A DNA stretch of 64,000 bases from Nitrospirales bacterium (GCA_963555755.3 OY820905.2:960001-1024000), one strand, 5' to 3'. Counted from the stretch's first letter, positions 12,033-41,209 are shown. The notes: a model not told the origin generated them from the sequence alone. Made by a program: numbers and translations.

Positions 12033-12246
12033 TGCCTTGGGTGCGGCGGAGCCGCAGCCCCGAATTGACTTCTTTGGCGAGGGCTGTTTGAGCGCAGCGA
12101 GTTCCCGAGCCATCTTATTCGGGGCGGAGGCGGAGGGACCCGTAGAGCCTGCCCCCGCGGAGGCGGGGGGCCGCGCACGGGCAAAAATGGTTTTGGGCAC
12201 TTTTGCCGAAACAAAAGGGACTCGTCGCGCGGGGACGAAACCCCGC
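12033..12246 (-). repeat. ~200-bp structured repeat family D; other copies at ~52907-53100, 53507-53698 and 56257-56494, partial at ~47393, ~52010 and 54040-54820
   Basis: Shared hairpin CTTTTG-TTTCGG-CAAAAG followed by CAAAACCATT, and CCCCGAAT.A.GATGG...CTCGCT.CGCTCA.ACAG..TCGCCAAAG..ATTCGGGG. Confidence 0.85.
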
Positions 12247-12321
12247 ATATCATTTTTTGTAGAAATTTAAATTGCTGAGTTAGGGAGGGAAAACCTAGAT
12301 TGAAAGCTTCGCTGAAAAAAA

Positions 12322-13124
12322 TCAGTCCCGAATCACCCCATCCTGATTCATGTGCAGAATATTAAACTGCCCGTAGCTATCGGTTAAATTCAACGTGACA
12401 CCAGCCTGAACCCGACTCGATCCATTGCCTATCTCGGCAACCGTGTATTCAAACCCATCCGGCAAATTAATGCGCGCACGGTAAGGACCGCCGGTAAATG
12501 GATTCGTAATCGGCATACCCTTAGACTCTACCAATCCCGGCACGGTGACCTTCGCCTGCCGTGCATCTACATCAATATCAGCCTCGATCGGCACATACTG
12601 AGGTTCTAGCACTTCCGACATCGTACTGTTGTAAACAAAAAAGTGCGTGGAACCAGGCTTCGTTGATTCCCCATGCAGAATCTTGCGCAGGGCTTCGCGT
12701 TGAGCCGCATCGGCCCGCTCATCAATCAAGATCTGTTGCTTGCCATTGCCTGCAGCAACCTCCCCTGGCCATTGAACCTAGAAACGGCAGTTGGGCGCAA
12801 AAAAGACGTGTAAGATATTGGTGTGCATGGTGAAATACAAAAAGTCGTGTCACCTCTCTGGTGATGAGACCTTTTTGTATTTTGCCAGGTGCGCCAAGGG
12901 CTTGCGCGGACTTTTGTGATCCAACTGCCGTTTCTAGGTTGAAGCAACATGACAAAGTTCAGCCCATCCAACCGCGTGTCATTGAAATAACCTTCCTCAA
13001 TATGCCCCGAGGCAACCGCCTCACAAAACCCATTCGTCGACGGCGCATTGAACTGACACCCACACCCATACGAACAATTGCAGTTCGAAAACTCGACTCC
13101 CCGAATCATCCATTGATCAGACAT
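12322..13124 (-). pseudogene. DUF1326-family protein interrupted by MITE A (12777-12938)
   Basis: NCNC..GC.C motif; removing the MITE plus TTCAA restores MLLQ|WPGEVAAGNG...IDERA. Confidence 0.9.
12777..12938. mobile_element. 162-bp MITE family A
   Basis: TIR CCTAGAAACGGCAGTTGG; TSD TTGAA. Confidence 0.92.
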
Positions 13125-13141
13125 CGGTTACCTCCCTCTTA

Positions 13142-13298
13142 GGGTTCGCGCAAGAATAACTTCCCCTGTTTGGGCGTCGATCCATCCCGCCTGGCGGCGT
13201 TGCTCGTCCTTTCCATACGAGGAGTATGCGCAGTCCTCGCGCCTTGCCAGACAGGCGTCTCAGCACCCAAACAGGGGAAGTTATTCTTGCGCGAACCC
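13142..13298. mobile_element. IS5-like MITE family B
   Basis: TIR GGGTTCGCGCAAGAATAACTTCCCCTGTTTGGG; near-identical to 9673-9829; immediately upstream of the DUF1326 RBS. Confidence 0.85.
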
Positions 13299-13451
13299 TA
13301 AGCCTGTGGTTATAAGCCGGAGCTATTCTTTTTCCTATCCTTCTACCACGACTTCCTAGACAATTTCCACAGTCAAGAGAGACAAAAAGTCTTGGTTTCA
13401 CCGTCATCCGGTTGGGTCTGGCCGACATACAAGCCTTTGACCTTAGGACTC

Positions 13452-13821: not shown

Positions 13822-14142
13822 ATTTTTCATATTTCACTTTTTCATTCTCGGCTTCGTTCTGTCATTCCCGACGTGTTCAATCGGGCATCCATACCCTTTT
13901 TGTCACCCCCACTGTCTCTAGCACAACCCTGGAAGCCTCCGTCGATAGTCTTGCAGTACGTATTCACATGGATTGAATCCAGGAAAGAGTTTATACTGGA
14001 AGTATACCCGGGAACACATAAGGTACCTCCCGGCCACCACCGCTCTTCAAAGAGCGAAGACGCGTGGTCACTATAGCTTAACTTTCTGTTACCTGCGCCT
14101 CTCACCCCAACTTGCTCCGCAAAGGGAGGAGGGAGAATTAAG

Positions 14143-15024
14143 ATGTACGAGTTGAAAGTTAAAACCCCCTCTTCCAACCTTGGAAGCACTCCTCTCCGCG
14201 ATTCCGTGCGCAACATCGATCATGCAATTCCCGACCAATTAGCTATTGAGGAACCCTTAGAAATCCGTTTGGAGTATTGGGCGAACAACGAGCCCCAGCG
14301 CAAAAGTGTGTCCATCACAATGCGGACACCGGGGAACGATGCGGAATTGGCCACAGGGTTTCTGTTTACCGAAGGCATTATCACGGGTTGGGACGATATC
14401 AAACAGGTGCGCCCGTGCGGACCTAACGTGGATGGTCAAGACTTTCACAATATCGTGCGAGTGGAAGTGCATCCCACGGTCGCCGTAAAGACCGATTCGA
14501 TGGATCGAAATTTTTACACGACTTCCAGTTGTGGAATTTGTGGAAAAACCTCTCTCGAAGCGCTCAAGATCCATAACCGCTATGGGAACAATATTCAAAA
14601 CCTGCCTCACTCCACCATCCCTCGAAAAGTGCTACTAGGTCTCACAGATCAAATGAAGGCTTGCCAACAGCTCTTCCAGGAAACCGGGGGGTGCCATGCC
14701 TCGGCGTTGTTTGACGAACAGGGCAATCTTCTTTGCTTGCGCGAGGATGTGGGGCGGCACAATGCGTTGGATAAAGTAATCGGATGGGCGCTGAGTCAGA
14801 GATACCTGCCCTTGCACAATCATATGGTTCTGGTGAGTGGACGAGCGAGTTTCGAGTTGATGCAAAAGGCATCGATGGGAGGTATTCCTCTATTGGCCTC
14901 GGTAGGCGCGCCCTCCACTCTTGCGCTTCAAGTTGCTGAAGATTTGAATATGACGCTCGTGGGTTTCTTAAACCAGAAACGGTTTACCATTTACCACGAT
15001 CCTGGAAGAATTCAGGATCGGTAG
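14143..15024 (+). CDS. fdhD: Formate dehydrogenase accessory sulfurtransferase FdhD
   Basis: EEPLEI, MRTPG, SSCGICGK and EDVGRHNALDK motifs. Confidence 0.95.
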   Translation: MYELKVKTPSSNLGSTPLRDSVRNIDHAIPDQLAIEEPLEIRLEYWANNEPQRKSVSITMRTPGNDAELATGFLFTEGIITGWDDIKQVRPCGPNVDGQDFHNIVRVEVHPTVAVKTDSMDRNFYTTSSCGICGKTSLEALKIHNRYGNNIQNLPHSTIPRKVLLGLTDQMKACQQLFQETGGCHASALFDEQGNLLCLREDVGRHNALDKVIGWALSQRYLPLHNHMVLVSGRASFELMQKASMGGIPLLASVGAPSTLALQVAEDLNMTLVGFLNQKRFTIYHDPGRIQDR

Positions 15025-15046: not shown

Positions 15047-17401
15047 ATGGACGAAAAACCCAACCAACCATCCGAACCGTCCAAGCCCTCATGGGAAGTT
15101 CCGATCGAAGATCCACATGCGCTGAAGGTTGAGGCCCCATCCACCTGGGCCGGGGGCATTCCAGCCATCATGACTTCGCTCTCACACACCACGCATGAAA
15201 TGGGTATCATCCGAGGCGGGAAAGCGCTGCTCAAGATCAATCAGAAAGGTGGATTTGATTGTCCGGGATGTGGCTGGCCCGATCCGGACGACGACCGCGC
15301 CATCACCGAGTTTTGCGAAAATGGCGTAAAGGCTGTTGCGCATGAAGCCACCACCAAAGTCATCACCAAAGATTTTTTTCAACACTGGTCTATTGAGGCC
15401 TTAGGCCAACAATCCGACTACTGGCTGGGCCAACAAGGGCGTCTCACCCACCCCATGGTCAAGGAGGCGGCCAGTACCCACTACCGTTCCATTTCATGGG
15501 AAGAGGCCTTCACCAAAATGGCCACCCACCTCAATGCGCTGGAGGACCCCAACGAAGCCATCTTTTATACCTCGGGTCGAACCAGCAACGAAGCCGCCTT
15601 CCTCTATCAACTTTTCGCGCGATTGTATGGGACCAACAATTTGCCCGACTCCTCCAACATGTGCCACGAGTCTAGCAGCGTGGCCATGAAAGAAGTCATT
15701 GGCATTGGCAAGGCCACAGTCACGCTCGACGATTTCCAACATGCCGATGCCATCTTTATCTTGGGACAGAATCCCGGCACTAATCACCCACGCATGCTGG
15801 CTACGCTGCAAAAAGCTGCACGGCGGGGTTGTCAAATTGTCAGCATTAATCCCCTGCCCGAAGCCGGCACCACGCGGTTTATCCATCCGCAAGAATTCAC
15901 CACCTGGTTAGGTCAGGGGACTCCACTGGCCACACTATTTCTTCAAGTCAAAATTAATGGAGACGTGGCATTGCTCCAGGGAATGATGAAAGAACTATTG
16001 GAACGAGAAGCTCAGCATCCCGGCACCATCCTCGACAAGACGTTCATCCAACAATACACCGACGGATTCGAGAACTTCGGCGCAGCCTTACAACACGTCT
16101 CGTGGGACGACATAGTTGAAGGCAGCGGCATCTCAAAAGAAGACATTCAAAAAGCCGTAGACATCGTCGTACAGGCCAAGAGCATCATCTGCACCTGGGC
16201 CATGGGCATGACCCAACATAAAAACGCCGTGGCCAATATGCAGGAGATCATCAATTTCCTTTTGTTGCGCGGGAACATCGGTAGAAAAGGCGCAGGAGCA
16301 TGTCCCGTTCGTGGACATAGTAATGTGCAGGGCGATCGCACGATGGGGATTACCGAAAACCCCGCGCCAGAATTTTTGAATCGTTTAGAACTGGTCTTTG
16401 ACTTTCAGCCACCCACACAGCGCGGACATGACGCGGTGCGAGGCATCAAGGCCATGCACGAAGGACGTGCTAAAGTCTTCATCGCGCTCGGCGGTAATTT
16501 TCTATCGGCCACCCCGGATACTAGTTACACCGCCGAGGCCATATCGCGTTGCCGGTTAACAGTGCACATCTCCACCAAACTCAACCGTGCGCACCTAGTC
16601 ACAGGCAACGAAGCACTCATCCTGCCGGCCTTGGGACGAACCGATCAAGATCGCCAAGCCGGGCACCTCCAATATGTCACTACCGAAAACACCATGGGCG
16701 TGGTCCAAACCTCACAAGGGCAACTCGAACCCGTCTCTCCCGACATCAAAAGTGAAGTGAACATTGTGGGGAACCTGGCCAAGGCCACCTTCGCACATCG
16801 AGAAGAAGCGGGGCGGCACATCAACTGGGACACACTCATGGAAAACTATGATGAGATTCGACACCTCATCAACCAGGTGATTCCCGGGTTTGAAAACTAT
16901 ACGGCACGCGTTCAAAAGCCCGGAGGCTTTTACCTCTTCAATCCAGTCCGGGATGCCCGGCGATTTCCTACTTCGACGGGCAAAGCCAATTTCACCGTGC
17001 ATCCGTTGCCCAGAATTCCACTCCAGCCCGGGCAATTGCTCATGATGACTATTCGAAGTCACGATCAATACAACACCACCATTTACGGGTTGGATGATCG
17101 ATACCGTGGAGTGAAATCGGGCCGACGCGTCGTGTTCATGAATCAGACCGATATGGATGACCGAGGATTAGCCAAAGGTGACCCTGTAGACCTTGTCAGC
17201 CATTACCAGGGTCAAACGCGAAAAGCCGAACAATTTACAGTGATCCCCTACCCCATTCCCCGCACCTGTGTCGCCACCTATTTCCCCGAAGCCAACGTGC
17301 TCATCCCCATCGACAGCGTAGCCGACAAAAGCAACACCCCCACCTCCAAATCCGTCGTCGTCACCATCCATCCCTCTTCTACTCATTCCCGACATCCTTA
17401 A
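15047..17401 (+). CDS. FdhF/YdeP-family molybdopterin oxidoreductase
   Basis: GFDCPGCGWPD, EFCENG.KA, YTSGRTSNE, SNMCHES and IRSHDQYNTTIYG motifs. Confidence 0.93.
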   Translation: MDEKPNQPSEPSKPSWEVPIEDPHALKVEAPSTWAGGIPAIMTSLSHTTHEMGIIRGGKALLKINQKGGFDCPGCGWPDPDDDRAITEFCENGVKAVAHEATTKVITKDFFQHWSIEALGQQSDYWLGQQGRLTHPMVKEAASTHYRSISWEEAFTKMATHLNALEDPNEAIFYTSGRTSNEAAFLYQLFARLYGTNNLPDSSNMCHESSSVAMKEVIGIGKATVTLDDFQHADAIFILGQNPGTNHPRMLATLQKAARRGCQIVSINPLPEAGTTRFIHPQEFTTWLGQGTPLATLFLQVKINGDVALLQGMMKELLEREAQHPGTILDKTFIQQYTDGFENFGAALQHVSWDDIVEGSGISKEDIQKAVDIVVQAKSIICTWAMGMTQHKNAVANMQEIINFLLLRGNIGRKGAGACPVRGHSNVQGDRTMGITENPAPEFLNRLELVFDFQPPTQRGHDAVRGIKAMHEGRAKVFIALGGNFLSATPDTSYTAEAISRCRLTVHISTKLNRAHLVTGNEALILPALGRTDQDRQAGHLQYVTTENTMGVVQTSQGQLEPVSPDIKSEVNIVGNLAKATFAHREEAGRHINWDTLMENYDEIRHLINQVIPGFENYTARVQKPGGFYLFNPVRDARRFPTSTGKANFTVHPLPRIPLQPGQLLMMTIRSHDQYNTTIYGLDDRYRGVKSGRRVVFMNQTDMDDRGLAKGDPVDLVSHYQGQTRKAEQFTVIPYPIPRTCVATYFPEANVLIPIDSVADKSNTPTSKSVVVTIHPSSTHSRHP

Positions 17402-17411
17402 TCGGGAATCT
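17384..17411. repeat. REP-like hairpin (G)TCATTCCCGAC-N-ATCGGGAATC; copies at ~13861, 18294, 21471, 23135 and 55390-55465, reverse type at ~11927
   Basis: Recurring ATTCCCGA...TCGGGAAT palindrome. Confidence 0.85.
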
Positions 17412-17547
17412 ATCTTCAACAGCCTGCCTTTTGTAAAATGGACAGTGCCAATTAAATACAAAATTCTATCTATACATTTTTCGAGGGTTTGGGTAGCATG
17501 GAAGTGAAGAAAACCAGGCAAGGAACACAGTTGGAAAGGAGCCGAAC

Positions 17548-17754
17548 ATGTCAGAAATAATTTTTTTGGTAGAAGAAGCACCAGAGGGAGGATACACGGC
17601 ACGAGCCTTAGGGGAATCTATTTTCACAGAAGCCGATACGTTTGCTGAACTCCACGACAAAGTTCGCGACGCGGTACGGTGTCATTTTGAAGAGAATAAC
17701 GTTCCCAAATTGATAAGGCTTCATCATGTCAAAGAAGAAGTCATTGCTGTATGA
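17548..17754 (+). CDS. HicB-like antitoxin
   Basis: EIIFLVEEAPEGGYTARALGESIFTEAD; ATGA overlap with the HicA gene. Confidence 0.8.
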   Translation: MSEIIFLVEEAPEGGYTARALGESIFTEADTFAELHDKVRDAVRCHFEENNVPKLIRLHHVKEEVIAV

Positions 17755-17999
17755 GATTACCTCGTGACCTTTCGAGTGAAGAATTATTCCAAACCCTCAA
17801 AAGCTTGGGATATCGGATCACTCGACAGACCGGCAGCCACATCCGGTTAACGACTGACCAACATGGTGAACGTCACATCACTATTCCTCAGCACAACCCT
17901 CTCCGAATAGGCACCTTATCCACAATCTTGAATGATATTGCAGATCACTTTGAAATGAGCCGTGAGGCATTAGCCAAAAAACTTTTTGAAAAAAAATGA
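17751..17999 (+). CDS. hicA: HicA-family toxin
   Basis: GY..RQTGSH.RL and ITIP.H..L..GTL motifs. Confidence 0.88.
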   Translation: MRLPRDLSSEELFQTLKSLGYRITRQTGSHIRLTTDQHGERHITIPQHNPLRIGTLSTILNDIADHFEMSREALAKKLFEKK

Positions 18000-18069
18000 T
18001 TATAATGATGATGGCCTCATCAGGACATTATAACTTTATCACCCCCTACCGTGACTTTTGTGATGTTCT

Positions 18070-18285
18070 GCCAAAGGCGACCTCGTAGACCTCGTCAGCC
18101 ATCACCAAGGCCGCACGCGAAAAGCCGAACAATTTACAGTGATCCCCTACCCCATTCCCCGCACCTGCGTCGCCACCTATTTCCCCGAAGCCAACATACT
18201 CATCCCCATCGACAGCGTAGCCGACAAAAGCAACACCCCCACCTCAAAATCCATCGTCGTCACAATCCATCGCGCTAAAAATTAA
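18070..18285 (+). pseudogene. Displaced, diverged 3' end of the YdeP-like gene (copy 2)
   Basis: Encodes AKGDLVDLVSHHQGRTRKAEQFTVIPYPIPRTCVATYFPEANILIPIDSVADKSNTPTSKSIVVTIHRAKN*; aligns to 17171-17371. Confidence 0.92.
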
Positions 18286-18557
18286 ACTTCTCGGTCATTC
18301 CCGACATCCTTAATCGGGAATCCATATTCATTCCTCCGTCCTCTAAAACCTACTCCGGTGAAAACGTTCCGTTGGACCGGTGACATTTCGTTGCAAAATT
18401 CTGCCCGCAAACTTCACCAAAGCAGTTAATGCATAAACACTCCTACGCCACGTTTCCAAAAACAGAATGAGTACGGGCTGCACACCAGCGGGCGAGGATG
18501 CTATGATAACGCGGCTCGACACGCCACATCTCTATACCCACATGCTGAGAGGAAACT

Positions 18558-18968
18558 ATGGCCACAAATCTAACACGCATTCTTATTGGAATCCCTTTTG
18601 GTCTCATGCTCTTCGTAGGAGCTGGACTTGCGGCAGAACCGGCTGAAGTGGAGAAGTTCGTAAACGCTCGCATTGAGATCGGCGAGATGATGACCGATTA
18701 TTTTTCTGGCGGAAGACAATTCGGGAGTGGACAACGACCCGCACCCGACCAAATGAAAAAAATGGGAGAGGATATCAACGCAAAACTCAGCACGCTTTTG
18801 GCAACACATGACCTGACGATCGAAGAGTATCGCCAACGCAGCCATGAGGTGTTCGCCGACGACGCGGCGGTGAAGGGCTATCTCAGCCAGCATCCCGATC
18901 TAAAGGAAAGATATGAGGCGCTTCCGTTCTCACGGATGGGACGCGGCGGCAGCGGGCGAGGATATTGA
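18558..18968 (+). CDS. Hypothetical exported protein
   Basis: GAGGA RBS; signal peptide ending in GLA-AE. Confidence 0.75.
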   Translation: MATNLTRILIGIPFGLMLFVGAGLAAEPAEVEKFVNARIEIGEMMTDYFSGGRQFGSGQRPAPDQMKKMGEDINAKLSTLLATHDLTIEEYRQRSHEVFADDAAVKGYLSQHPDLKERYEALPFSRMGRGGSGRGY

Positions 18969-19012
18969 ACCGGAAGCGATAAAAAAAGCAGGAATGAGCC
19001 AGACTTGGACCA

Positions 19013-19690
19013 ATGAAGTATCGCTTACAAAAGACAGACAAGCACTGGCAATTGATCGATCAAGATGAGCCAGACATTGCGCCAGTTTTTATAGATTTTG
19101 TGTCCGGAAAAACCGCCTATCGAAGAAAGTATGGCCATGCGGGGGGCGAAGCCATCAGCAAGGCGATCGGCATAAAAAAAGGCAATCGCCCGAATGTAGT
19201 CGATGCCACCGCCGGTTGGGGGCGAGATGCCTTTGTACTAGCCACCATGGGCTGTCGCGTCCATATGATCGAACGATCGAAAGTCATTGCCACACTCCTT
19301 GAAGATGGCTTACGTCGTGCAGAGCAAGATGAAAAAATTGGCCCGTTGATAAAAGAAAAGATATCTCTCACCTGCGGGGAGAGTCACCAAGAATTACGCA
19401 ACATCCCATTTGAGCCTGAAGTCATTTATCTCGACCCCATGTATCCCCACAAAAAAAAATCCGCGTTAGTGAAGAAGGAGATGAGAATACTACAAGAAGT
19501 CGTGGGGCAAGACGATGACGCCGATGTGTTACTGAAAGTCGCACTGACCATTGCCACCAATCGTGTAGTCGTCAAACACCCGGACTATGCGGGCTTTCTT
19601 GGCGAGCTCAAACCAACCACCTCGATCAAAACAAAAAAACACCGATTTGATATTTATCTCATCAATGCCGAGGAGGCTGTCCGAGATTAG
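19013..19690 (+). CDS. rsmJ: 16S rRNA m2G1516 methyltransferase RsmJ
   Basis: VVDATAGWGRDAFVLA, YLDPMYP.KKKSALVKKEM and RVVVK motifs. Confidence 0.88.
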   Translation: MKYRLQKTDKHWQLIDQDEPDIAPVFIDFVSGKTAYRRKYGHAGGEAISKAIGIKKGNRPNVVDATAGWGRDAFVLATMGCRVHMIERSKVIATLLEDGLRRAEQDEKIGPLIKEKISLTCGESHQELRNIPFEPEVIYLDPMYPHKKKSALVKKEMRILQEVVGQDDDADVLLKVALTIATNRVVVKHPDYAGFLGELKPTTSIKTKKHRFDIYLINAEEAVRD

Positions 19691-20173
19691 TGATCGTTAC
19701 GAGTTTTGGTATTCAGCTTTCTTTTTTTCCTTTCAGACAACGGAGCCCGCGGATTGCCCCGGCTCCTTCTTTGGCACTTTTCTGATTCCCCAAAAACCCT
19801 GTATAAAATTCCCATTCACGACTGATTTAATGTTAATGTTGTATCTTAGAACGTTGAATGAAGGATCATGGTGCGCCTCATTGTAACCGTGTTGGAAAAT
19901 TGTCGATATTTTTTTTAAAAGCAGGTCTTCTCAACAATAAAGGGTCTGTTGAATATTTCATGCCAAGAGCCCACAAATGCCCCAGGACAGAAGACCAACA
20001 TCACGGAGAGGGAATGTTCAAAAAAGCATGCCCTGAGTCTTTCCGAAGGGTCCGTCCAGCAAGGCCGCAGCCCTTTTGACGCGCGGAGCGTACTCATAGT
20101 ACGTGAGCACGGCAAAAGGGCGAGAACGCCGCTGGCGGCTTTTTTCAACATTCCCATAAAGGTTTAAACATCC

Positions 20174-20578
20174 ATGCCCACACTTTCCAGAGTCATGAGC
20201 CGGTATCTCCAAAAAACTCAGGCTCAAACATCAGTCGTTGAGGTAGCACAAAAATTTCGTGATCATCGAGTAGGCGCACTACTCGTAGAATGGAATGGAG
20301 AAATTGTCGGAATAGTGACCGAATGGGATATCATTGGAAAAGTGGTGGCTCACGGAAAGGATTTCGCGACGACCACCGCAAAGGATGTGATGACCTCCCC
20401 TACCCATAGTATCGAGGTAACCAACAGCCTTCAGAATGCCCTCGAAATAATGAAAGATCTTGGGGTCCGTCATCTGGTTGTCCGTGAAGCAGGGAAAGTG
20501 ATCGGGATAGTCACCCTGCGTGACCTATTAGTGTACTTCGGTTGGTTTTACGAACAAAAAACTGCCCAAACTGGTTGA
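20174..20578 (+). CDS. CBS-domain pair protein
   Basis: GALLV..GIVTE.D and VRHLVV..GIVT.RDL motifs. Confidence 0.9.
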   Translation: MPTLSRVMSRYLQKTQAQTSVVEVAQKFRDHRVGALLVEWNGEIVGIVTEWDIIGKVVAHGKDFATTTAKDVMTSPTHSIEVTNSLQNALEIMKDLGVRHLVVREAGKVIGIVTLRDLLVYFGWFYEQKTAQTG

Positions 20579-20786
20579 TCTTTCCTCGCTATAATTAGTT
20601 GGAGGGTCAGGACTTATTTCATGCATGTAATTCCAGCGGAAATCTATCTCGGCATGAAGAGCGTACAATTTTAATCAATAAATTAATAAATAGGTTTGAC
20701 CCCTTTTTTGACCCCTTTTTCAGGAGCATTCATTGAAGTTCCTCTTCCTTGATTCTCTAGGCAAGAAAAATTGAAATAAAAGAATC

Positions 20787-21299
20787 ATGGACAAAGTCGC
20801 CATATTTGCAGACGTGCAGAACCTGTATTACACGGTGAAGCAACAGTATCAGTGCCATTTTGATTACGGAGCATTTTTGGAACATGCGACGGCAGGCAGA
20901 AATCTCGTCAAGGCCATCGCGTACGCGACAGACAAAGGGGACCGAAAACAAAAAGACTTTCAGCAGATCCTGGAGAGGATGGGATTTGAAATAAAACTCA
21001 CACCGTTTCTCCAAAGGCGTGATGGCTCCGCCAAGGGTGACTGGGACGTCGGGATTGCGCTGGACATGGTCGAGTACGCCAAACAGGTGGACACAATCGT
21101 TCTGGCATCAGGGGATGGGGACTTTACCGCAGTCGTGGACAAGATCAGACAGGAGCACAAGTTGGCGGTGGAAATCTACGGCGTACCGGACCTGACGGCT
21201 TCCTCATTGATCGAAGCGGCAACACGCTTTGTGCCCATTCAAGGGAACCTTTTGTTGTCGATTCCGACAACCTGGGGGCCTACCCTAAGGAGACAATAG
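20787..21299 (+). CDS. NYN-domain (LabA/DUF88) protein
   Basis: D.QNLYY, KGDWDVG and SGDGDF motifs. Confidence 0.92.
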   Translation: MDKVAIFADVQNLYYTVKQQYQCHFDYGAFLEHATAGRNLVKAIAYATDKGDRKQKDFQQILERMGFEIKLTPFLQRRDGSAKGDWDVGIALDMVEYAKQVDTIVLASGDGDFTAVVDKIRQEHKLAVEIYGVPDLTASSLIEAATRFVPIQGNLLLSIPTTWGPTLRRQ

Positions 21300-21490
21300 G
21301 GCACACCCGCAAAGCCGAACAATTCACCGTGATCCCTTACCCGATTCCCCGTACTTGTGTCGCCACCTACTTCCCCGAAGCCAACGTCCTCGTCCCCATC
21401 GACACCGTCGCCGACCAAATCAACACCCCCGCTTCAAAATCCGTCGTCGTCACCGTCCATCCCGCTACTAGTCATTCCCGACATTTGTAA
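21300..21490 (+). pseudogene. Displaced, diverged 3' end of the YdeP-like gene (copy 3)
   Basis: Encodes HTRKAEQFTVIPYPIPRTCVATYFPEANVLVPIDTVADQINTPASKSVVVTVHPATSHSRHL*. Confidence 0.92.
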
Positions 21491-21585
21491 TCGGGAATCT
21501 ATCCTTCCCTTTTTTCGGGCCTTTCTTTTTGTCTAGGGGTTGGTTAGCATGCGTGCGCAGTTCCAAAGCGTACACATAGTAGGCA

Positions 21586-22116
21586 ATGGCAAATACAAAG
21601 CAGAACAAAATCATGATTCTTGCTGGGCCGAATGGCGCTGGCAAAACAACATTTGCGCGGGAGTTTCTTCCCAAAGAAGCCGAATGCCCACGATTTATCA
21701 ATGTGGATCTCATTGCGGCCGGACTCTCTCCCTTCAAACCAGACGTAGCCGCATTTCAGGCTGGCCGGCTCATGGTTCAAGAGATGGCAACACTCGTGCG
21801 TCGTCGCGAAAGTTTCGCGTTTGAAACCACGTTAAGTGGATTGCGGTATGCTCTACTCATTCCGCAATGGAGGAAGAAGGGGTATTTTATCAAGCTCATT
21901 TTCCTCCAACTTCCTAACCCGGAAATGGCCATAGCGCGTGTGACAGCCCGAGTGACACAAGGGGGACATGCAGTAACGAAGGAAGTCATCCAAAGAAGAT
22001 TTATGGCAGAATGGCGAAACTTCCAACACACATATAAACCCCTTTTCGATGCATGGATTCTATATGATAATGCAGGAGATGTCCCAAGATATGTGGACTC
22101 AGGAGGGAAAAGTTAA
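21586..22116 (+). CDS. Zeta-toxin-like P-loop ATPase
   Basis: AGPNGAGKTT, FAFETTLSG and RV..RV.QGGH motifs. Confidence 0.85.
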   Translation: MANTKQNKIMILAGPNGAGKTTFAREFLPKEAECPRFINVDLIAAGLSPFKPDVAAFQAGRLMVQEMATLVRRRESFAFETTLSGLRYALLIPQWRKKGYFIKLIFLQLPNPEMAIARVTARVTQGGHAVTKEVIQRRFMAEWRNFQHTYKPLFDAWILYDNAGDVPRYVDSGGKS

Positions 22117-22373
22117 TGGCCAATAAACGGACGTCAATCAAAGACCCAGATCTTGCCAAAGTTGGAGTCGCGCTAAAGCGTGCCGCGTTAAAGGCCAGGC
22201 AATTAGGATTTGCCACGAACACCCCAGTGTACGTCTTTCGAGAGGGGAAAATTATCGATATCGTGGCAGAACACCGAGCGACACAATTACCTAAAAAGGC
22301 AAATACGAAAGGTTCAGGAACACAAAGGCAACGCCTTGGCCAAAAAACCGCAACCATAAAAAACAAGCGATAA
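22116..22373 (+). CDS. Small partner protein of the zeta-like ATPase (putative antitoxin)
   Basis: TAATG coupling; DPDL....AL.RAA..AR....TNTP....GKI motif. Confidence 0.65.
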   Translation: MANKRTSIKDPDLAKVGVALKRAALKARQLGFATNTPVYVFREGKIIDIVAEHRATQLPKKANTKGSGTQRQRLGQKTATIKNKR

Positions 22374-22407
22374 CAGGGGGTGTCTCGAAAAAGGGTTAGA
22401 AAGAGAC

Positions 22408-23097
22408 ATGATAAGGAACCACGATCTTTACCCAAGAAGAGGGCCGGCACCCACACAGCTTCCGGTTAAACTCACCACGCCATTAATAATTCTATGTCTC
22501 GCGATCATATTCCTCGTAGGGATCACGACCTGCACAGACATCAAACGATGGGCCTACGAAGGGTTTGACCGCGATGAATGGCAACACCCAGAGGAAGTCA
22601 TTAAGGCCCTGAAGATCCAGGCAGGAGACCAGGTCGCAGACCTCGGGGCGGGAAGTGGCTATTTTACGTTTCGATTGGCGGATGCTGTGGGACCCACCGG
22701 AAACGTATACGCCGTGGATATCGATGCGGAGATGAATGCCTACCTCGCCCAACGAGTACAGGACAAAGGATACCAGAACATTGAGGTCGTACTGGCGCGC
22801 CCGAACAACCCCGGCTTGCCGGACAACAGCATCGACCTCATTTTCTCAAGTAATACCTATCATCACCTCGAAGAAAGGGTAACGTACTTTGCCAACATCC
22901 GACAAGACCTTCAGCCCGATGGGAGCATTGCCATCATCGACTTCACTGGTGAGGGATGGTTCCAGCAACTTTTTGGCCACTACACCCCAAGCAAAATTAT
23001 CCAACGCGAATTACAAGAAGCGGGGTACACCCTCGAAGCAAAATTGGAATTTCTCCCAAAACAGGTGTTTCTTATTTTTATAAGAAATCGGCCGTAA
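22408..23097 (+). CDS. Class I SAM-dependent methyltransferase
   Basis: RDEWQ.P, VADLGAGSGYF and VYAVDI motifs. Confidence 0.9.
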   Translation: MIRNHDLYPRRGPAPTQLPVKLTTPLIILCLAIIFLVGITTCTDIKRWAYEGFDRDEWQHPEEVIKALKIQAGDQVADLGAGSGYFTFRLADAVGPTGNVYAVDIDAEMNAYLAQRVQDKGYQNIEVVLARPNNPGLPDNSIDLIFSSNTYHHLEERVTYFANIRQDLQPDGSIAIIDFTGEGWFQQLFGHYTPSKIIQRELQEAGYTLEAKLEFLPKQVFLIFIRNRP

Positions 23098-23350
23098 GAA
23101 CTCGACCCACGCGAACTTCACACTTACTTAATTTGTCATTCCCGACATTTTTAATCGGGAATCCATCTTTTCTTTAACCCCTTTCAATTCTCCCTATTTT
23201 TAAGTACATTCATATCCTAATGATAAATAAACCATAACAGCGGGCTCCCACCCATTTGAAGGCACGCCATGTTTTCAAACCCTCACCCCCGAAAATTCGA
23301 AACATGTTTCCCAAATTCAAAATTTAAATGTGGCATTGCAAGACCTGACC

Positions 23351-24819
23351 CAATACTGTTCACTTAGATATCTTCGGTGGTTTGATGGATGGTGTCCAGT
23401 CAATTTGCGCAACGGGCGGTCTCGGACGTTTGTACGGTGCGTATGGAGAGTTTCGGCGTTTCACCATCCTCGGCTTGATTTTTCCACGACTGGATTCACA
23501 CAACAGTTTCGCCGTCGCCTCAAACAGCAGCCGATACCATGTTTTTTGGCGCTCAGGGGGGAAGGGCCCCAGATTGGGGCAGGGTTCGACGCACTAACTG
23601 CACCGTGGCCGTAAAAGATACCGTGCGGTCAGGGATGTCTGCCTGGGTGGCCCCTTGATACATCAACCAGCGCACGGCGTAGTGGGCCATCACCCATCCG
23701 TAGAACTCTTGACGCACCAACTCTGGCGTTTTACTGCGCAGGACGCGACGACGTTGCCTCAGGTGCGTCTTCAGCTCATCAAACACCAATTCCACCTCCC
23801 AGCGCTCGTGATACAGTTGAGCCAGGTCCTGGGCGGGTGCGCCTTGGTCATCCAGCAGCGTGGTGACGAGACGGTACAGCGGTTCGCTATTGGGCCCCTG
23901 CGGTAAGACATACTCAATCACCCTGATGGCGATCCCATCAATTCGCTTTCTTCTGGCGCGTTCACTGGGATACAGATGGCTCAGGTACGAGCCATCGTCC
24001 AACAGCTTGTCAACTGGAAGGATCAAGCTCTTCGGCATGCGCCAGAGTAGTTGCGCTCCGGTCTGAAGGCCGGCCTGCCAATGGGCGTACCCGACAAAGC
24101 CGCGATCGGCCATGCAGAGCATGTCGGGCGTGAGGCGACGCACCAAGGGCGCGGCCACCTCCCATTCGGCCTGCTTATAGGCCCCTAGTTCGGCATCCAA
24201 AATGGCGTGACTGGCACATTCCGTCAAAATGGCGCACTGGGCTTGGGGGTAGCCGGCCTGCCCGGTTCGGCTCCCTGGGTACCCAAAGGCTTGCACATTG
24301 GCTTCCTCATCCGGGACCTCAAAGTTGGAGCCATCTATCGCGACGAGTCGGTAGCCTGCAAAAAAGGCGTGGGCATGCTCTGGACGAGCCAACGGGCGCA
24401 AGCAGCGCTGTCCAATGGCTTTCAGCGCCTTCCACGTCAGCCGTGAGCGGGCTTTGCTGATGGCTGATTTGACAACGGTCACGGGAGCAACGGGTTTGTG
24501 GTCTTTCCATGCCAGCCCTTGGGCCACAGCGGCAAACACCGCTTCGTACGCGGCCTCGCTGTATAAGCTCAACGCCATGGTGTAGTACACCACGGCAGAA
24601 GCGGGAAAGGTGCGGACACGTTCACTGTTACAATGATGTGCGTCAAGTTCTTCGTTGATGATGGCCACCGGAAAGGCACGAGCCAGTAATCCCGTGCTCA
24701 AATAATCCGCCAATCGAGCCCCCGCCCCCAAGCCGACTTTCTTTCTTGCCATGTTGCCTCCTCCCAGATTACGTGTGGAGGCGAAGTATAACAGATTTTC
24801 ATCTAAGTGAACAGTATTG
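23351..24819 (-). mobile_element. IS4-family element (1469 bp), transposase 24752->23553
   Basis: TIR CAATACTGTTCACTTAGAT; 10-bp TSD AGACCTGACC; IDGS, ADRGF and YHERWEVE motifs. Confidence 0.95.
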
Positions 24820-27417: not shown

Positions 27418-29320
27418 CAGGGCTATTTCATATTAAAGTGTAACTTTATAGATAATAAGGAATAATCGATTTAGGCTGGCTTTTTCTTTTCGTTTACGGC
27501 ATACTCTTTTGCATGCCAGACGAATCGCCAAGCGGACAGCCGGACATTGATCTGAGGCAAGTCGTGGTTCGCCCAATTGTCCGAGACGAAAAGGACGCCT
27601 TCAAGACCCTTCTCGACAGACACCACTACCTCGGTCATGCCCCGCTGATTGGCCAATCGATACAATATCTCGCCTGTGTGCAGGATCGCTGGCTGGCCTT
27701 GCTGGTGTTTGCGGCGGCGGCCCTCAAATCGAGACCGCGAGACCACTGGATCGGCTGGCCCCCCTGTTTTCAATGGCAACGACTCCATTTACTGGCCAAC
27801 AACACCCGGTTTCTCATGCTGCCGGGCTGTTCGCAAAAGAACCTCGCCTCGAAAGTCCTGTCGCTCTGCGCGAAACGGATCTCGGCCGATTGGCAACTGT
27901 ACCACGGCTACCCCTTGCTCCTCTTAGAGACCTTCGTCGATCCTGCCCGCTTCACCGGGACCTGCTATCGGGCCGCCGGGTGGCACGAGCTCGGTCTGAC
28001 ACGAGGGTTTCGCAAGTCGAACACGTGTTATGTTCAGCATGAGAGACCGAAGCGCATCCTAGTCGTGCGGCTGCATCCCCAAGCCCGAGAGATCCTTGCA
28101 CGCCCGATGCTTGATCAGCCCTATCAGAAAGGAGAAGCGCCTCAGATGAGATTGAATACAAAACAGACGGACTCCCTCTTTACGTATGTGGTGCAGCTGA
28201 CCGATCCCCGCCATTTGCAAGGGCAACGGCACACCCGACGCGCCCTCACGGCGATCATGTTCTGTGCCACCTTGTGCGGCGCGCGCGGCTATGAAGCGAT
28301 CTCGGACTGGGCCCAGCAGTTATCGCAGCCGATGCGCAAGCGGCTAGGCTGTACTCAGCGAGGGGGGCGCTACCTCGTCCCGAGCCGCAGCACTCTTTAC
28401 CGCTTTATCACGGCCGTCGACCCCTGTGAAGTCGATACCCTGCTCGGCCGGTGGCTGGACACCTTCGGCGGGGAGGATCAGGGCATTGCCATTGATGGGA
28501 AGACCATGCGGGGGACGTCGAAGGTCCCAAGCGAACAGACCCACGTCCTCAGCGCCGTCACCCATCAAGCCGGGCGCCACCTCACCCAAAAAAAGTTCAC
28601 TCCAAGACCAATGAGATCCCCTGCGTGCGGCCCCTGTTAGATGCGCTCGAGATCGCAGGGAAGGTGATCACGGCGGATGCGCTCCTCACCCAGAAAGAGA
28701 TTGCCGAGTACCTGGTGCACGAACGCGGCGCCGACTTCGTCTTCACCGTCAAGGGAAACCAGCCCACCTTGAAGCACGACATTGAGGCCTTAGCGTTGCG
28801 AGCACGCCGGTGCGATTATGCCACCACCGAGAAAGGCCATGGGCAGATCACGACCCGCAGGATCTGGTGCGATGACTCCCTGAATGCCTATGTCAACTTT
28901 CCTCATGTCCAGCAAGTCTTCTGCATTGAGAGGGAAGTGACGCATCTCAAGCAGGGCCTCACGACCGTCGAAGCGGTCTGCGGTGTCACGAGTCAGTCCA
29001 AAGACAAGGCGGGGCCGAAGACCATCCTCTCGCAAAACCGAAAGCATTGGAGTGTGGAGAATAAGCAGCATTATGTGTTGGACGTCACCTTTGATGAAGA
29101 CAGGAGTCAGATACGAAGTCTCAATGGCCCAATGGTCATGACCTGTCTGAGACGCTATGCCATCAGTCTCTTACGCCTGAAAGGCTACACCAATATCGCG
29201 CAGGCGTGTAGACTGCTCTGGGGCAAGCCCCATTTAGCCATCCGCATGGCCCTGCCCTGAAAAAGAGGGCACAAAAAACCTCATGGAATCCCTTGCTTAT
29301 AAAAAGAATGAAATGGCCCG
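27418..29320 (+). mobile_element. ISAs1-family IS with N-terminal DUF4338 fusion (ORFs 27513-28640 and 28625-29260)
   Basis: CAGGG ends; 10-bp TSD CCGGTGAAGC; IDGKT.RG, KTNEIP, ADAL..Q, VKGNQ and HW.VEN..HYVLDV.F.ED motifs. Confidence 0.95.
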
Positions 29321-36881: not shown

Positions 36882-39294
36882 GTAACTACTCAGGTCAATT
36901 TTCTATAGCCTGATTTTTTTCTGGACTAACGGCTCCACCCATGGCATAATCGGGGCCATGAATGAAGCGATTACATGTCAAGGTCGTCGCCTCCCCCAAT
37001 CTGATCTGTGCTGGTTACGCCATCTGGTTTGCCGGCACCCTGACTGGAGCCGCCATAAAATAACCCAGCATATTTGTCGGCACTGGGGCTGGCAGACCCC
37101 GTCCGGACAACTGAAAACCTTTGCCGCCCGCAGCATGATCGACAAACTCGAACATCGCGGGCTCCTGAAGCTGCCCCCGATTCGTGTCGCCTCTCGACGC
37201 AACATCTTCCCCCCTTTCCGAAAGGGGTTTATGCCTCCCGAAGCCCCGCACATCGACGCAGCTCTCAAGACCCTGACGCCCCTGTCCATTCATATTCCAA
37301 CCTCACATTCCTACGAAGCCAGTTGTGTGGGATATTACCTGAGCCACCATCACTACCTCGGGTTCACCCGAACGGTCGGTGAACATCTCAAGTACCTGGT
37401 GCGGGATCGCTCCGGGCAGGATCTGGCCTGCCTCCTCTTCGGTTCCGCCGCCTGGAAAACCACCCCGCGCGACACCTTTATCGGCTGGGAGCCGGACACC
37501 CGAGCCGCCAACCTCAACTTCATGACCAACAATACCCGCTTTCTCATCCTGCCCTGGGTGCGTGTGCCGCATCTGGCCAGCCATCTCCTGGGCCGGGTCA
37601 TGAGACGTCTCCGGCAGGACTGGATCGAGAAATACGGCCATCCCGTCCACTTGGTGGAGACCTTTGTGGAGCGAGACCGCTTCAAAGGTATCTGCTATCA
37701 GGCCGCGAACTGGCTCTATGTCGGGCAGACCAAAGGCCGGTCCCGGCAGGACCGTGACAAGGCTCTGCGCGTGCCGGTGAAGGCAATTTATCTCTATCCC
37801 CTCATCCGCCACTTCCGACAGGCCCTCTGCCGGAGCAAGCCATGACCTTCACCCGCGACGCACTCCTCATCCTGGCCAAGAGCAACCCCGAGGCGCTCGT
37901 CGAACTGATCCTGGCGCTGCAGGAACAGGGGCAGGCGCTGACCACGCATGTCACCGAACTGGCACAGCGGCTCGACCAACACAGTCGCAACAGCAGCAAA
38001 CCGCCCTCGTCCGATGGACCGGCCAAGCCCCGAACCAAGAGCCTGCGCATACCTTCCGGGAAAAAGCCGGGCGGCCAACAGGGACATGCCGGCCAGACGT
38101 TAAAACAGGTGGAAACCCCAGACCACCTGGTCCACCTGCCTGTTCACTCCTGTTCCTGCCATGCCGACCTCACCAACGAGACGGTCACCGGCTATGAACG
38201 CCGGCAGCTCTTTGAACTGCCGGAGCCAAAACTCGACGTCACCGAATATCGGGGAGCAATCAAAACCTGCCCCCAATGCGGCCGCTCGGTCACGGCGTCA
38301 TTTCCTGATGACCTGCCTGCGCCGGCACAGTACGGTCCCAGATTTCGCAGCCTCCTGGTCTACCTCCAGAACCAACAGTTGATCCCCTTACGCCGTGTCA
38401 GCCAGATGATGGCTGATCTGTATGGCGCCTCGGTCAGCGACGCCACCATTGACGAGGCCTCCCGCCGAAGTTATGAGCACCTCGCGCCGTTCGAGACTGC
38501 GGTCAAAGAAGCGCTCGGCAAGAGTCCCATCCTCCATGCCGATGAAAGCGGCGTCCGCACGGCCGGGACGCTCCACTGGCTCCACAGTGCCAGCACGGCC
38601 ACGTTGACCTTTTACGGTGTGCACGCCAAACGGGGAAGAGAGGCGATCGAGCAGTTCCAGATCCTCCCGGATTTTGCTGGCCGCCTGATCCACGATTTCT
38701 GGAAACCCTATCTCTCCTATGACTGTGCCCACGGCCTCTGTAACGCCCATCATTTGCGGGAACTCACGTGCCTGTTCGAGCAGCACGAACAACCATGGGC
38801 CAAACACATGTTTGACCTGTTGCTGACGATGAACGTGTTTGTCAGCAAGCAACTCGCACAGTTAACGGAAGAACAGAAAACCCCCTGGCTGAAACAATAC
38901 AGGGATCTTCTCACCCTCGGATGGCAGGCCAACCCCCTTCCGGCACCGCCACAGAAAAAGTCACGAGGCCGGCCCAAAAAGACCAAGGCCCAAAATCTCC
39001 TCACCCGTCTTGGCGAGCATGAAGCCTCCGTGCTCGCGTTCCTCCATGACAGACAGGTTCCCTTCACTAATAATCTGGCAGAACAGGATATCCGCATGAT
39101 CAAGCTCCGCCTCAAAATATCCGGGTGTTTTCGAACGCTTCAAGGCGCGAGGCAGTTCGCCCGCATACGAAGCTACCTTTCTACCGCGAGAAAGCAGGGC
39201 GGCAACATGCTGCAAGCCATTTCACAAGCCATGATCGGCCACCCCTTTATGCCTGCACAATTCACTACAAAGATCATCACACCTGAGTAGTTAC
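36882..39294 (+). mobile_element. IS66-family element with a DUF4338 ORF (36958-37845) coupled to TnpC (37842-39290)
   Basis: TIR GTAACTACTCAGGT; 8-bp TSD GTTTTTTT; SRNSSKPPSSD, HADES, C.AHHLREL and FTNN.AE.D.R motifs. Confidence 0.95.
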
Positions 39295-41209
39295 GTTTTT
39301 TTTAGCGTAGGCGTGCAAGGTCCGCAATTCAATGTCCGAGAACAGCACCTCGGCCGGCAATTCCGGGGTTTCTCTCCCCAGAAGGGTCATGAGCATAATC
39401 CGCCAGGCAATGACAAGGTTAATGGCAATCGCCCGACACAAACGTTCTGCACTCTCGTGAGCGATCTCCTCAATGCGACAGCCGGATTTCAGCACGCGGT
39501 GCCAGTCTTCGATACGCCATCGCAGAGCGTACCAGCGCAGGCACTGTTCGGCCTCCGCGGCCGAGGAGATATCGATCGTTGTCAGCAGGAACCACTCAAC
39601 GGGCTCAGCCGTTGCCGGCGGGTGCTCTTCCAGCGCATGAACCACCCAGATATCGATGGGTTCCTTGGCGGCGTGGTCGTGTGCCGGACGAAGTTGGATT
39701 CGCCTAGCGCGTACCGCCATATCCGCCGTACGCCCGGCCCGCTTGGGTCGAGCCTGTTGTTTGCTTCTCTTAGGCCGGGCGCTCTGTCGTGGGAGGTGTA
39801 CGCGAATCCGACTCTGAACGGGCGCCTGACGAATGGCGGTGAACAGTTTGAAGGGTTCTTCGGTGATGGTGCGGTTCTGCTTGGCACGGACCAGTAGGCC
39901 AACGCGAGGGTGTTGGCGTTGCTCGTCGAACATGTCGAAGAAGTCCGCTTCCCGGTCGCACACGTCGATCAGGCGCGTCTGAGGCATTTCGGACGCCAGT
40001 TCAACCAGATCGCGGTGCTGCGCAATCCAGTTGAAGGTCTTCTTCTCCTCGATCGGAATGGCGAACGCGGGCCGATCATCTTCCGGTGCTCTGCTTTTGG
40101 GGGCTGTGCACTGAGCACGCAGCACTCCCAAGGGTAGTCCGTTCGGGGCGATCGCCAACATGGAGTGCAAATGGAGTCCGCGGCTCTTTGCACCGGTCTG
40201 GTTGGTGCCAATCTCACCCAGCCCTTCACAGTGATCCAGGTTGGTGTATTCCAAATCGCTGCCGTCCTGCACACACAGCACGGTCTTTTGTCCCTTCATC
40301 CGCCGCACGGTGCGCCTGCGGTGCGGCCTCAGGATGTTGGGCATGGTGATTGCCGAGTCCTCCGGCTGGTCGATCATGCGGTAATAAGCCTTGACCGCCG
40401 CCCAATCGCCCTTGGCCACGCCGCTAAAGGCGCGGCCCGGCACTTCGGCTTTGGCTGCCGCCACGGTTACCAGCCTTTTGCTCAGCCGAGCATCGCCTAG
40501 GGGGGCGCCGCCGAACTCGTGTTCCGCCCAAAGATCTCCCCCCAAACCGTCTGCCGGATTCAACGGACTAAGCCCGGCATTCGGGGGCAACCCCATTCGC
40601 TCCCGAAAGTCGGTCTCGATGGGGTAGACATAAATCGCTTTGGCGCTCAGCGCCGACTGTTTGAAGCGATCTTGTCTGCCGCGCCCCTTGGTCTTCCCCA
40701 CCGCGATCCAGTTCGCCGCCCGATAGCAGGCCCCCGAATAGTGACGGGTGTCGACAAAACTCTCGACCAACCAGGGCTTATAGCCGAACTGGCGCTCAAA
40801 ATCATCGGGCAAAGTCGCAAGACTCATACTCAGCACTTTCGAAGCCAGGTTGCGGCATGGCACGCTCGGACGAAGCAGAAAACGGCTCATCCCCACCACA
40901 CAATGCAGATGGGCTCGGCGCTGCTCGGCATCCCAGCCGATCCACGTGTCACGGTCGGCCAGCTGCAGAGCCGCTGCGGCAAATCCAAATCCGCCCAGCC
41001 AACCATGGTGTGACCCGATGAGGTAGCGCAGCTGCCGCCCGACGAGAGGCCCCGCCCCTTGAGGATGTTCGTTGATCATCAGCTCATTCCATATCCGCAT
41101 CTGCTCGGATGTGCTCACCCGTACCAGCTCCAATCCTTGGACCTTCCCGGCTTGAGACGGAACCGCTACGGCCAAAGGTACCGGCGCCAATAAACGCCGG
41201 GGAGAACTG

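Follow-up and report, generated by a model that had tools for sequence, protein, structure and literature searches.

Displaced 3′ gene ends behind a YdeP-family gene and other genes of a Nitrospirales bacterium, and their possible entry on DNA circles

Why should the terminal part of one oxidoreductase gene recur downstream of the gene itself, each time on the same strand and beyond a block of unrelated genes, where no integrase is encoded nearby? The question is raised by a 64,000-nt stretch of DNA (hereafter the window) from a marine Nitrospirales bacterium with a 4.6-Mb genome, in which a 784-amino-acid (aa) FdhF/YdeP-family molybdopterin oxidoreductase (TIGR01701, 933 bits against a cut-off of 582) is encoded at 15047..17401 on the plus strand; we refer to this gene, whose closest titled homologs are also from Nitrospirales, as ydeP. 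An initial annotation had read the region behind it as an array of gene blocks separated by displaced 3′ ends plus a repetitive extragenic palindromic (REP) hairpin, in which successive incoming DNAs each brought a new 3′ end and cargo genes while pushing the old end downstream. Here, we find that ydeP is one of about two dozen such places in the genome and that the displaced ends, judged from their substitution patterns, are former working alleles. We propose, with a probability of roughly 0.55, that a small DNA circle holding a relative's 3′ gene fragment plus cargo enters through a single homologous crossover, without the help of an integrase.

Displaced ends as former working alleles

Both downstream recurrences of the ydeP end were borne out. 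Copy 2 together with its hairpin (18070-18330) is 87.0% identical to the gene end over 261 nt, and copy 3 with its hairpin (21299-21503) is 86.8% identical over 205 nt, each on the same strand as the gene. The displaced fragment of copy 2 proper (18070..18285, plus strand) retains 71 open codons and closes with a stop of its own (18283-18285) and a different C-terminal tail; copy 3 (21299..21499, plus strand, including hairpin 3 at 21472-21499) is likewise open, with neither stop nor indel. Relative to the gene, copy 2 carries 9 synonymous and 8 non-synonymous differences and copy 3 carries 14 and 8, a bias that is weaker (p 0.01-0.05) when these two copies are tested alone. No second full-length ydeP paralog was found in the genome, only distant relatives of 22% identity, and a separate paralog is thereby ruled out as the source of the copies.

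A scan of 3041 open reading frames (ORFs) of at least 150 aa for same-strand partial copies, with ORF starts assigned mechanically, recovered the same arrangement at many other genes. Within 30 kb, copies of 3′ ends lay downstream in 37 cases and upstream in 6, while copies of 5′ ends numbered 8 and 8; in a stricter 10-kb scan, a 3′ copy lay downstream of 29 genes as against 9 mirror 5′ cases (p=0.0017), with 5 upstream 3′ cases. Once 7 genes of transposase, paralog or island type had been taken out, 26 pairs remained, distributed over 22 genes, with a median fragment of 189 bp (53-875), a median cargo of 1168 bp and identities of 75-100%. Target genes, named from their Pfam domains, include nuoN-like, acs, gltA, der, bioB, metG, carB, rapA, cobW, ftsX-like and ccmH-like genes. 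The most recent brackets are those at nuoN (C1:1199762-1202451), acs, a histidine kinase gene (830152) and hicBA (window 17171-18330).

The pattern of differences indicates what these copies once were. Ten of the 37 pairs were set aside (cargo over 8.5 kb, or transposase, integrase-gene or paralog cases); the other 27 hold 416 synonymous and 235 non-synonymous differences, a ratio of non-synonymous to synonymous change (pN/pS) of 0.17, whereas at least 0.5 would be expected of a duplicate that decays next to a functioning gene (p=3e-40). Every difference is synonymous in nuoN (20/20) and acs (9/9), while 6 of the 27 pairs contain a stop or frame-shifting indel and a few pairs are 97-100% identical. 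This synonymous bias implies that the two ends diverged as working alleles, each in a lineage of its own, before they came to lie in one genome, and the initial annotation, which from the open frames of the two ydeP copies had taken them for former functional ends rather than decayed duplicates, is upheld on this point.

Other genomes, all within Nitrospirales, carry the same signature. Five 400-kb samples (2.0 Mb, two families) held 8 cases (0, 1, 2, 3 and 2), compared to 23 in 4.4 Mb of the host genome, which rules out lineage-specificity and makes the pattern at least order-wide; 7 of 9 pairs from other genomes lean synonymous and 2 do not. Relatives have their own brackets with different cargo at bioB, der (genome G006), ftsX, ccmH and an efflux gene (genome G003), and of 91 genomes searched for bioB, 83 gave a match and 6 of these have a bioB bracket, fragment and gene lying on different contigs in 2 of the 6. 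Left boundaries have no motif in common, and for one and the same gene they vary from genome to genome. The array behind ydeP is real and is one instance of this wider pattern, not something specific to the locus.

Among the 20 loci fetched, cargo of toxin-antitoxin (TA) type is present at 12, with 2 more borderline, and comprises PIN/VapB, PemK, HepT, ParE, DUF433/DUF5615 and Gp49 families; DUF433/DUF5615 we take to be TA components. An integrase occurs at 1 of these 20 loci and transposases lie inside 3 others, and no restriction-modification family was found among the cargo ORFs scanned. As to carriage of the gene end by phages, none of 26 pattern matches in viral contigs was confirmed. Layering is seen at G003 ftsX, where a zeta-pair module, the same as in the window and bracketed by a displaced ftsX end, stands ahead of a vapBC layer that is also present in the host genome. 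This extra front layer indicates that cargo enters beside the gene and that older layers are pushed back, as the initial annotation had supposed.

Layers and neighbours of the ydeP locus

The newest layer at ydeP can be recognised from relatives that lack it. The functional 3′ end with hairpin 1 (17171..17410, plus strand) is a native-like allele, 197/207 identical to the ends at the relatives' loci L100 and L079, and its stop codon falls inside the CGTC/dRS3-like hairpin 1 (17383..17410). Three empty-site relatives (L098, L100 and L079) have this present end type, each in a single copy, followed directly by the flank that in the window now lies behind copy 2 (hairpin 2 plus ancestral flank, 18295..18371, plus strand), and the corresponding joint, 17414 to 18327, is found in a sediment contig of run X1. 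Taken together, these empty sites identify hicBA plus copy 2 as the newest addition, with a crossover inferred in or near hairpin 1; from this comparison of sequences, copy 2 is probably the incoming piece rather than the old end, and the polarity supposed by the initial annotation appears reversed here. The cargo of this layer (17548..17999, plus strand) consists of a 68-aa hicB-like ORF and HicA, the latter assigned by family match, in a block of 42.5% GC compared to 53.6% in ydeP. The window's hicBA module recurs at a different locus in another genome (G008:C206, 85%).

The second block, previously read as one cargo, is composite. Its hypothetical 136-aa gene and RsmJ-like methyltransferase (18558..19690, plus strand) are conserved neighbours in the genus (G002, G003, G006 and L098). 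The CBS gene is a later addition, lying in an insertion (19942..20720, plus strand) together with a high-copy repeat resembling miniature inverted-repeat transposable elements (MITEs; 276 genome matches) and two TGACCCC motifs (20697 and 20709) that stand just ahead of 20721, where homology to G002 and G006 resumes. The NYN-domain gene (20787..21299, plus strand), whose stop abuts copy 3, forms a gene-end junction common to the window, G006 and, with 28 bp left, G002; this junction bears different working-type alleles in the host genome (G000) and in G006 (14 synonymous and 11 non-synonymous differences). Beyond copy 3 follow a zeta-like P-loop ORF with an 85-aa partner (21586..22373, plus strand) and an S-adenosylmethionine (SAM) methyltransferase (22408..23097, plus strand), which lies directly behind ydeP in L099 and has its own displaced end in G005. 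The L099 arrangement suggests that copy 3 is an older end that formerly stood ahead of the methyltransferase. This third block is not closed by a displaced end, hairpin 4 (23136..23163) having none ahead of it. In the profile scan, the cargo ORFs carried the labels HicA, SAM_MT (the RsmJ-like ORF, scoring under the RsmJ cut-off), CBS, NYN, Zeta_toxin (a partial match) and Methyltransf_31, and three ORFs (hicB-like, hypothetical and zeta partner) matched no family.

The hairpins, TCATTCCCGAC-N7-ATCGGGAATC (28-nt), begin at 17383, 18295, 21472 and 23136, and a fifth, weaker one begins at 13862; the four fold with an 8-bp stem (z -2.8 to -4.1). The initial annotation had set one beside each displaced end. 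The hairpin has 62 matches across the genome and stands behind no more than 2 of 35 displaced copies, which both belong to the ydeP locus; it is incidental to the gene-end pattern and is ruled out as a defining attachment (att)-like site. A fourth ydeP end, decayed, lies 870 kb away (G000:C1:101578-101743). With its degenerate hairpin it stands ~230 bp ahead of a four-gene operon resembling a cyclic-oligonucleotide-based anti-phage signalling system (CBASS; patatin, DncV-like nucleotidyltransferase, E2/ThiF and JAB; L031:4861-9744, equal to G000:C1:96860-101743, minus strand), and this defence operon may once have been placed behind a ydeP gene.

Full-length orthologs (at least 75% amino-acid identity) were found in 2 of 40 relatives in one search, and further loci by other searches. 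The gene downstream of ydeP differs among them (rsmJ in L083 and L084, the methyltransferase in L099, a vapBC pair and then the hypothetical gene and rsmJ in L098, and others), in keeping with the variability that the initial annotation anticipated. No second ydeP end lies within 10 kb of the gene in the ortholog loci of other genera examined, so the gene appears to be a hotspot mainly in the window's genus. Three genomes of the same genus (G002, G003 and G006, the last 82% complete) have no full-length ydeP match and keep end remnants. In L079 the gene body, which groups with a different clade, is ~70% identical to the window gene, but identity rises to ~96% at 17057 and stays there over the final ~345 coding bases (L079:11984-12369); this may represent a cross-genus end swap or a bin chimera.

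Several observations on the surroundings complete the picture of the locus. Upstream of ydeP lies its partner fdhD (14143..15024, plus strand; PF02634 and NF001943 above cut-off), and a Vgb-lyase-family gene occupies the fdhD-ydeP position in G003. A putative promoter-like stretch ending GGTAGCAT or TTAGCAT stands behind several ydeP ends and ahead of differing cargo (window 17475-17500 and 21520-21552; L031:9520-9580; L074:9760-9870). At 190 bp past hairpin 4, an IS4-family element (window 23351-24819) has 19-bp perfect inverted repeats and GACCTGACCC motifs at its flanks. MITE-like repeats of four families lie at window 12034-12250, 12772-12943, 13138-13302 and 20016-20161 (103, 224, 223 and 276 genome matches), and four ORFs that are transposase-fused or transposase-paired match Druantia DruA (window 27513-28640, 36958-37842, 39280-41250 and 45183-46067). 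Elsewhere in the genome, an integron-integrase-like gene (G000:C1:318985-340000) is followed by ~140 bp repeated units that lie between small genes and by a fragment 73% identical to part of its own 3′ region, possibly a candidate integron.

Possible modes of entry: circles, linear DNA and others

How could a foreign gene end come to lie behind, or in place of, the resident one? Under the circle model, a circle bearing a 3′ fragment and cargo would enter the same gene of a new host, where a single crossover would keep the gene whole under its own promoter and duplicate only the fragment. Both copies would become reciprocal mosaics, with a switch point that could fall anywhere in the shared stretch; an early switch, as at nuoN, would push the old end back, and a late one, as at ydeP/hicBA in or near the hairpin, would let the old end be kept. 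The cycle would involve a circular intermediate, dependence on RecA and uptake by natural transformation; circles would first arise through illegitimate joining, a minority of them next to a TIRtron-type end, and new hosts would be seeded when recombination of the repeats excises the unit again. The predominance of 3′ ends would reflect a 3′ arm sparing both gene and promoter.

Linear one-sided entry predicts a displaced end that is wholly native, whereas circle entry predicts reciprocal mosaics. When sites were compared to the nearest relative, the working end and the displaced copy scored 114:34 in left halves and 80:75 in right halves (10 pairs pooled), and a left-to-right switch was detected at p<0.05 in 6 of 11 comparisons (cobW, ccmH, ftsX, nuoN, DLH, and DsbH against G005). 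In the six switching pairs, sites at which the displaced copy alone deviates comprise 91 synonymous and 37 non-synonymous differences, a composition that marks the left part of the displaced copy as a foreign working allele and not as the product of decay. For nuoN, contigs from sediment are 96-99% identical to the gene as far as the duplicated stretch and some way inside it, and at their far end match the displaced copy and flank; none covers the cargo, and they agree qualitatively with a mosaic. The circle model can also accommodate either polarity and a junction that was used more than once, with different alleles.

A number of points weigh against this model. No switch was detected in the other 5 of 11 comparisons (bioB, der, both ydeP copies with p 0.97 and 0.10, and DsbH against G006 with p 0.94); the sites are not independent, most relatives are only ~90% identical, and the six pairs that supplied private sites were picked because they switch. 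Polarity judged by plain identity gave a mixed outcome, a tree of 169-column gene ends supported 2 of 26 branches and was uninformative on donor identity, and frequent later recombination can overwrite polarity. No circle joint was seen in the contigs examined, where apparent back-joints (18272 to 17383 and 21293 to 18117) arise because alleles of other strains are present. The genes comEC and dprA are found in the genome, but they are also found in 10 and 11 of 14 control genomes and are no proof of competence. No Ku end-joining gene was matched in the genome, and Ku end-joining was accordingly rejected. The 3′ bias is weaker in a chunked scan (23 vs 12), and mechanical ORF starts may undercount 5′ cases. 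Finally, L079, whose diverged body and closely matching end count in favour of the model, is a metagenome bin whose switch lies ~780 bp from a contig end, possibly an assembly chimera.

The nearest competitor, doubtful in our judgement, is linear one-sided integration by homology-facilitated illegitimate recombination (HFIR), in which donor DNA finds its anchor in the gene and supplies a new end and cargo; its far end is then joined to the interior of the recipient gene, which displaces the old end whole, and exchange of alleles at a later time obscures the outcome. HFIR is known as a process yielding deletions, not duplications. It accounts for the synonymous bias, the variable boundaries (29 of 35 junctions have no common motif) and the layered arrays, and this model has also been proposed for type VI secretion system (T6SS) and Rhs arrays (PMC5361080). 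At DLH, 20 of 27 informative sites match the displaced copy, as a wholly native displaced end would predict, and the methyltransferase pair of G005, near-identical on the left and differing on the right, fits a linear event equally well as it does a circle. The same prediction disagrees with ydeP, der and DsbH and with the switches in cobW, ccmH, ftsX and nuoN: the left part of the displaced copy is foreign and synonymous-rich in switch pairs, and ydeP copies 2 and 3 are further from the empty-site relatives than is the working end.

An HUH/Y1 transposase of TIRtron or REP-associated (RAYT) type, acting in trans to make junctions or circles through TGACCCC-type ends or REP hairpins, is improbable as a general explanation. 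TGACCCC occurs at most 30 nt ahead of 6 of 35 junctions, always in one orientation (background 0.2-0.4%), and window junction 20721 comes after two such motifs; the genome holds 17 Y1_Tnp matches, and at two Y1 genes the gene's own 3′ end is duplicated (401 bp and 47 bp) immediately after TGACCCC repeats (G000:C1:2166750-2174650). However, three of the six motif-bearing junctions are transposases' own repeats, 29 of 35 lack the motif, the cargo is without bracketing inverted ends, and CGTC-type REPs are reported as unlinked to transposases (PMC3733652). Such enzymes would at most explain a minority of junctions; they are compatible with the circle model, and the six TGACCCC junctions offer a lead towards Y1/TIRtron enzymes in first circle formation.

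Still less likely are site-specific integrases acting in trans at att sites in coding 3′ ends, or an integron-like cassette array. Two long-cargo cases do look conventional and probably represent att-type islands, namely a 20-kb island downstream of proS, whose 507-bp repeat is 98% identical (G000:C1:4352701-4375216), and an island with an integrase downstream of a PEP-CTERM gene, whose repeat is 100% identical (G000:C1:4097921-4107160). The short-cargo cases involve 22 unrelated targets with no common core and fragments of 53-875 bp, and for these an att origin is largely refuted. Cassette sites of the attC type have the core motif RYYYAAC...GTTRRRY; a motif scan of five window boundary stretches found no attC-type core, RYYYAAC being absent and GTTRRRY occurring once, alone. 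As the initial annotation had noted, no integrase is at hand: among the 44 window ORFs scanned (14 + 30; two duplicate insertion sequence ORFs of a set of 33 left out) no integrase family was matched, and the only enzymes of this kind were DDE transposases.

The few near-identical pairs and the six disrupted ones might recall an exact duplication of the target, or a local tandem duplication, whose second copy later decayed. This reading has very little in its favour, being refuted for most pairs by the synonymous bias and countered less strongly by the two window copies alone. A strain-chimeric assembly of two alleles is the least credible of all, since unitigs 17317-18144 and 21167-23162 bridge both cargo/copy junctions with 0 differences in two runs of two studies (X22 and X23, which may be the source sample of the genome), the NYN junction recurs in G002 and G006, and relatives have brackets of their own.

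Relation to known systems and significance

Which described systems come closest? Insertion with long target duplication was reportedly described by Nobusato et al. in 2000. In Furuta, Abe and Kobayashi 2010 (PMC2853133), restriction-modification cargo without mobility genes is bounded by long and variable direct repeats, which in many cases reach across a stop codon while the gene stays whole, mostly in competent species; the repeats are near-identical (43-47 of 45-47 bp in rows of Table 2) and are read as target duplication after a DNA break, and a release and re-entry cycle is hypothesised without evidence. The present cases share cargo free of mobility genes between long variable direct repeats, with the gene intact. 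The 668-bp hicBA insert with its ~240 bp repeat falls within the limits of that class (under 20 kb, no mobility gene, repeats over 30 bp), and an empty site is found in L098, L100, L079 and run X1. Unlike that class as set out there, the repeats here are diverged working alleles (75-100%) and not near-identical, several pairs are reciprocal mosaics, the cargo is mostly TA-type and not restriction-modification, and a 3′ bias is evident.

Displacement of C-terminal ends by HFIR in Rhs, contact-dependent inhibition (CDI) and T6SS loci, where additions beside a conserved 5′ part displace older 3′ ends (Kirchberger et al. 2017, PMC5361080), resembles our arrays in that successive additions push older ends and genes back with no integrase. 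In those specialised toxin loci the new end changes function. The present pattern concerns genes with housekeeping or accessory roles throughout the genome, which receive an equivalent allele as their new end, and its mosaics speak for a circle. Oliveira et al. 2017 (PMC5635113) describe hotspots of horizontal gene transfer that are free of mobile genetic elements (MGEs) and acquire their content through double recombination in the core genes on either side; such hotspots too have variable cargo behind core genes, no integrases and flanking genes that recombine often, but a double crossover leaves no duplicated end and leaves first entry unexplained, whereas the scars here indicate single-arm entry. 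The hairpins resemble CGTC-tagged REPs and Neisseria dRS3, with a GTC tag, an 8-9 bp stem and a loop of 4-5 nt in Di Nocera et al. 2013 (PMC3733652), in having a GTC tag, an 8-bp stem starting ATTCCC, a CCA-like tail and dispersed copies, and differ in a loop of 9 nt. No account of a genome-wide pattern at housekeeping genes was found in the literature searched, beyond which subscription papers, Nobusato et al. 2000 and Supplementary Figure 7 of PMC2853133 may hold similar cases.

The mechanics of the proposed event are familiar from the laboratory. In Campbell (insertion-duplication) integration, a method in which one crossover in a captured gene fragment duplicates the fragment around cargo, a 3′-terminal fragment spares the gene; circularisable, or translocatable, units are known from resistance genes flanked by insertion sequences. 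Here too a fragment is duplicated around cargo and the gene is spared, but the homology arm is the ordinary end of a host gene from another strain or species.

We put forward more tentatively a wider proposal, that minimal enzyme-free circles, consisting solely of a host-gene 3′ end plus TA or defence cargo, knock into the same gene of other strains and genera by RecA, do that gene no harm and can loop out again through the repeats they create. If so, any gene end would be a reusable attachment site, an overlooked general route seeding chromosomal TA modules and MGE-free hotspots, and entry would be readable in any genome from synonymous-biased reciprocal scars.

The scars, a synonymous-biased 3′ copy behind cargo, are a countable signature in which the position of the allele switch provides a test separating circle from linear entry. 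They also show that gene ends are exchanged between Nitrospirales species; such exchange can distort single-gene trees, and mis-annotation of displaced ends as pseudogenes is possible. The scars bear in addition on the hypothetical release and re-entry cycle proposed for long-target-duplication inserts (PMC2853133). For chromosomal TA modules and integrase-free hotspots, double recombination (PMC5635113) covers later turnover and not the first arrival in a chromosome; integrase-free entry of circles, likely recorded by these scars, would help explain the spread of TA-type genes through chromosomes.

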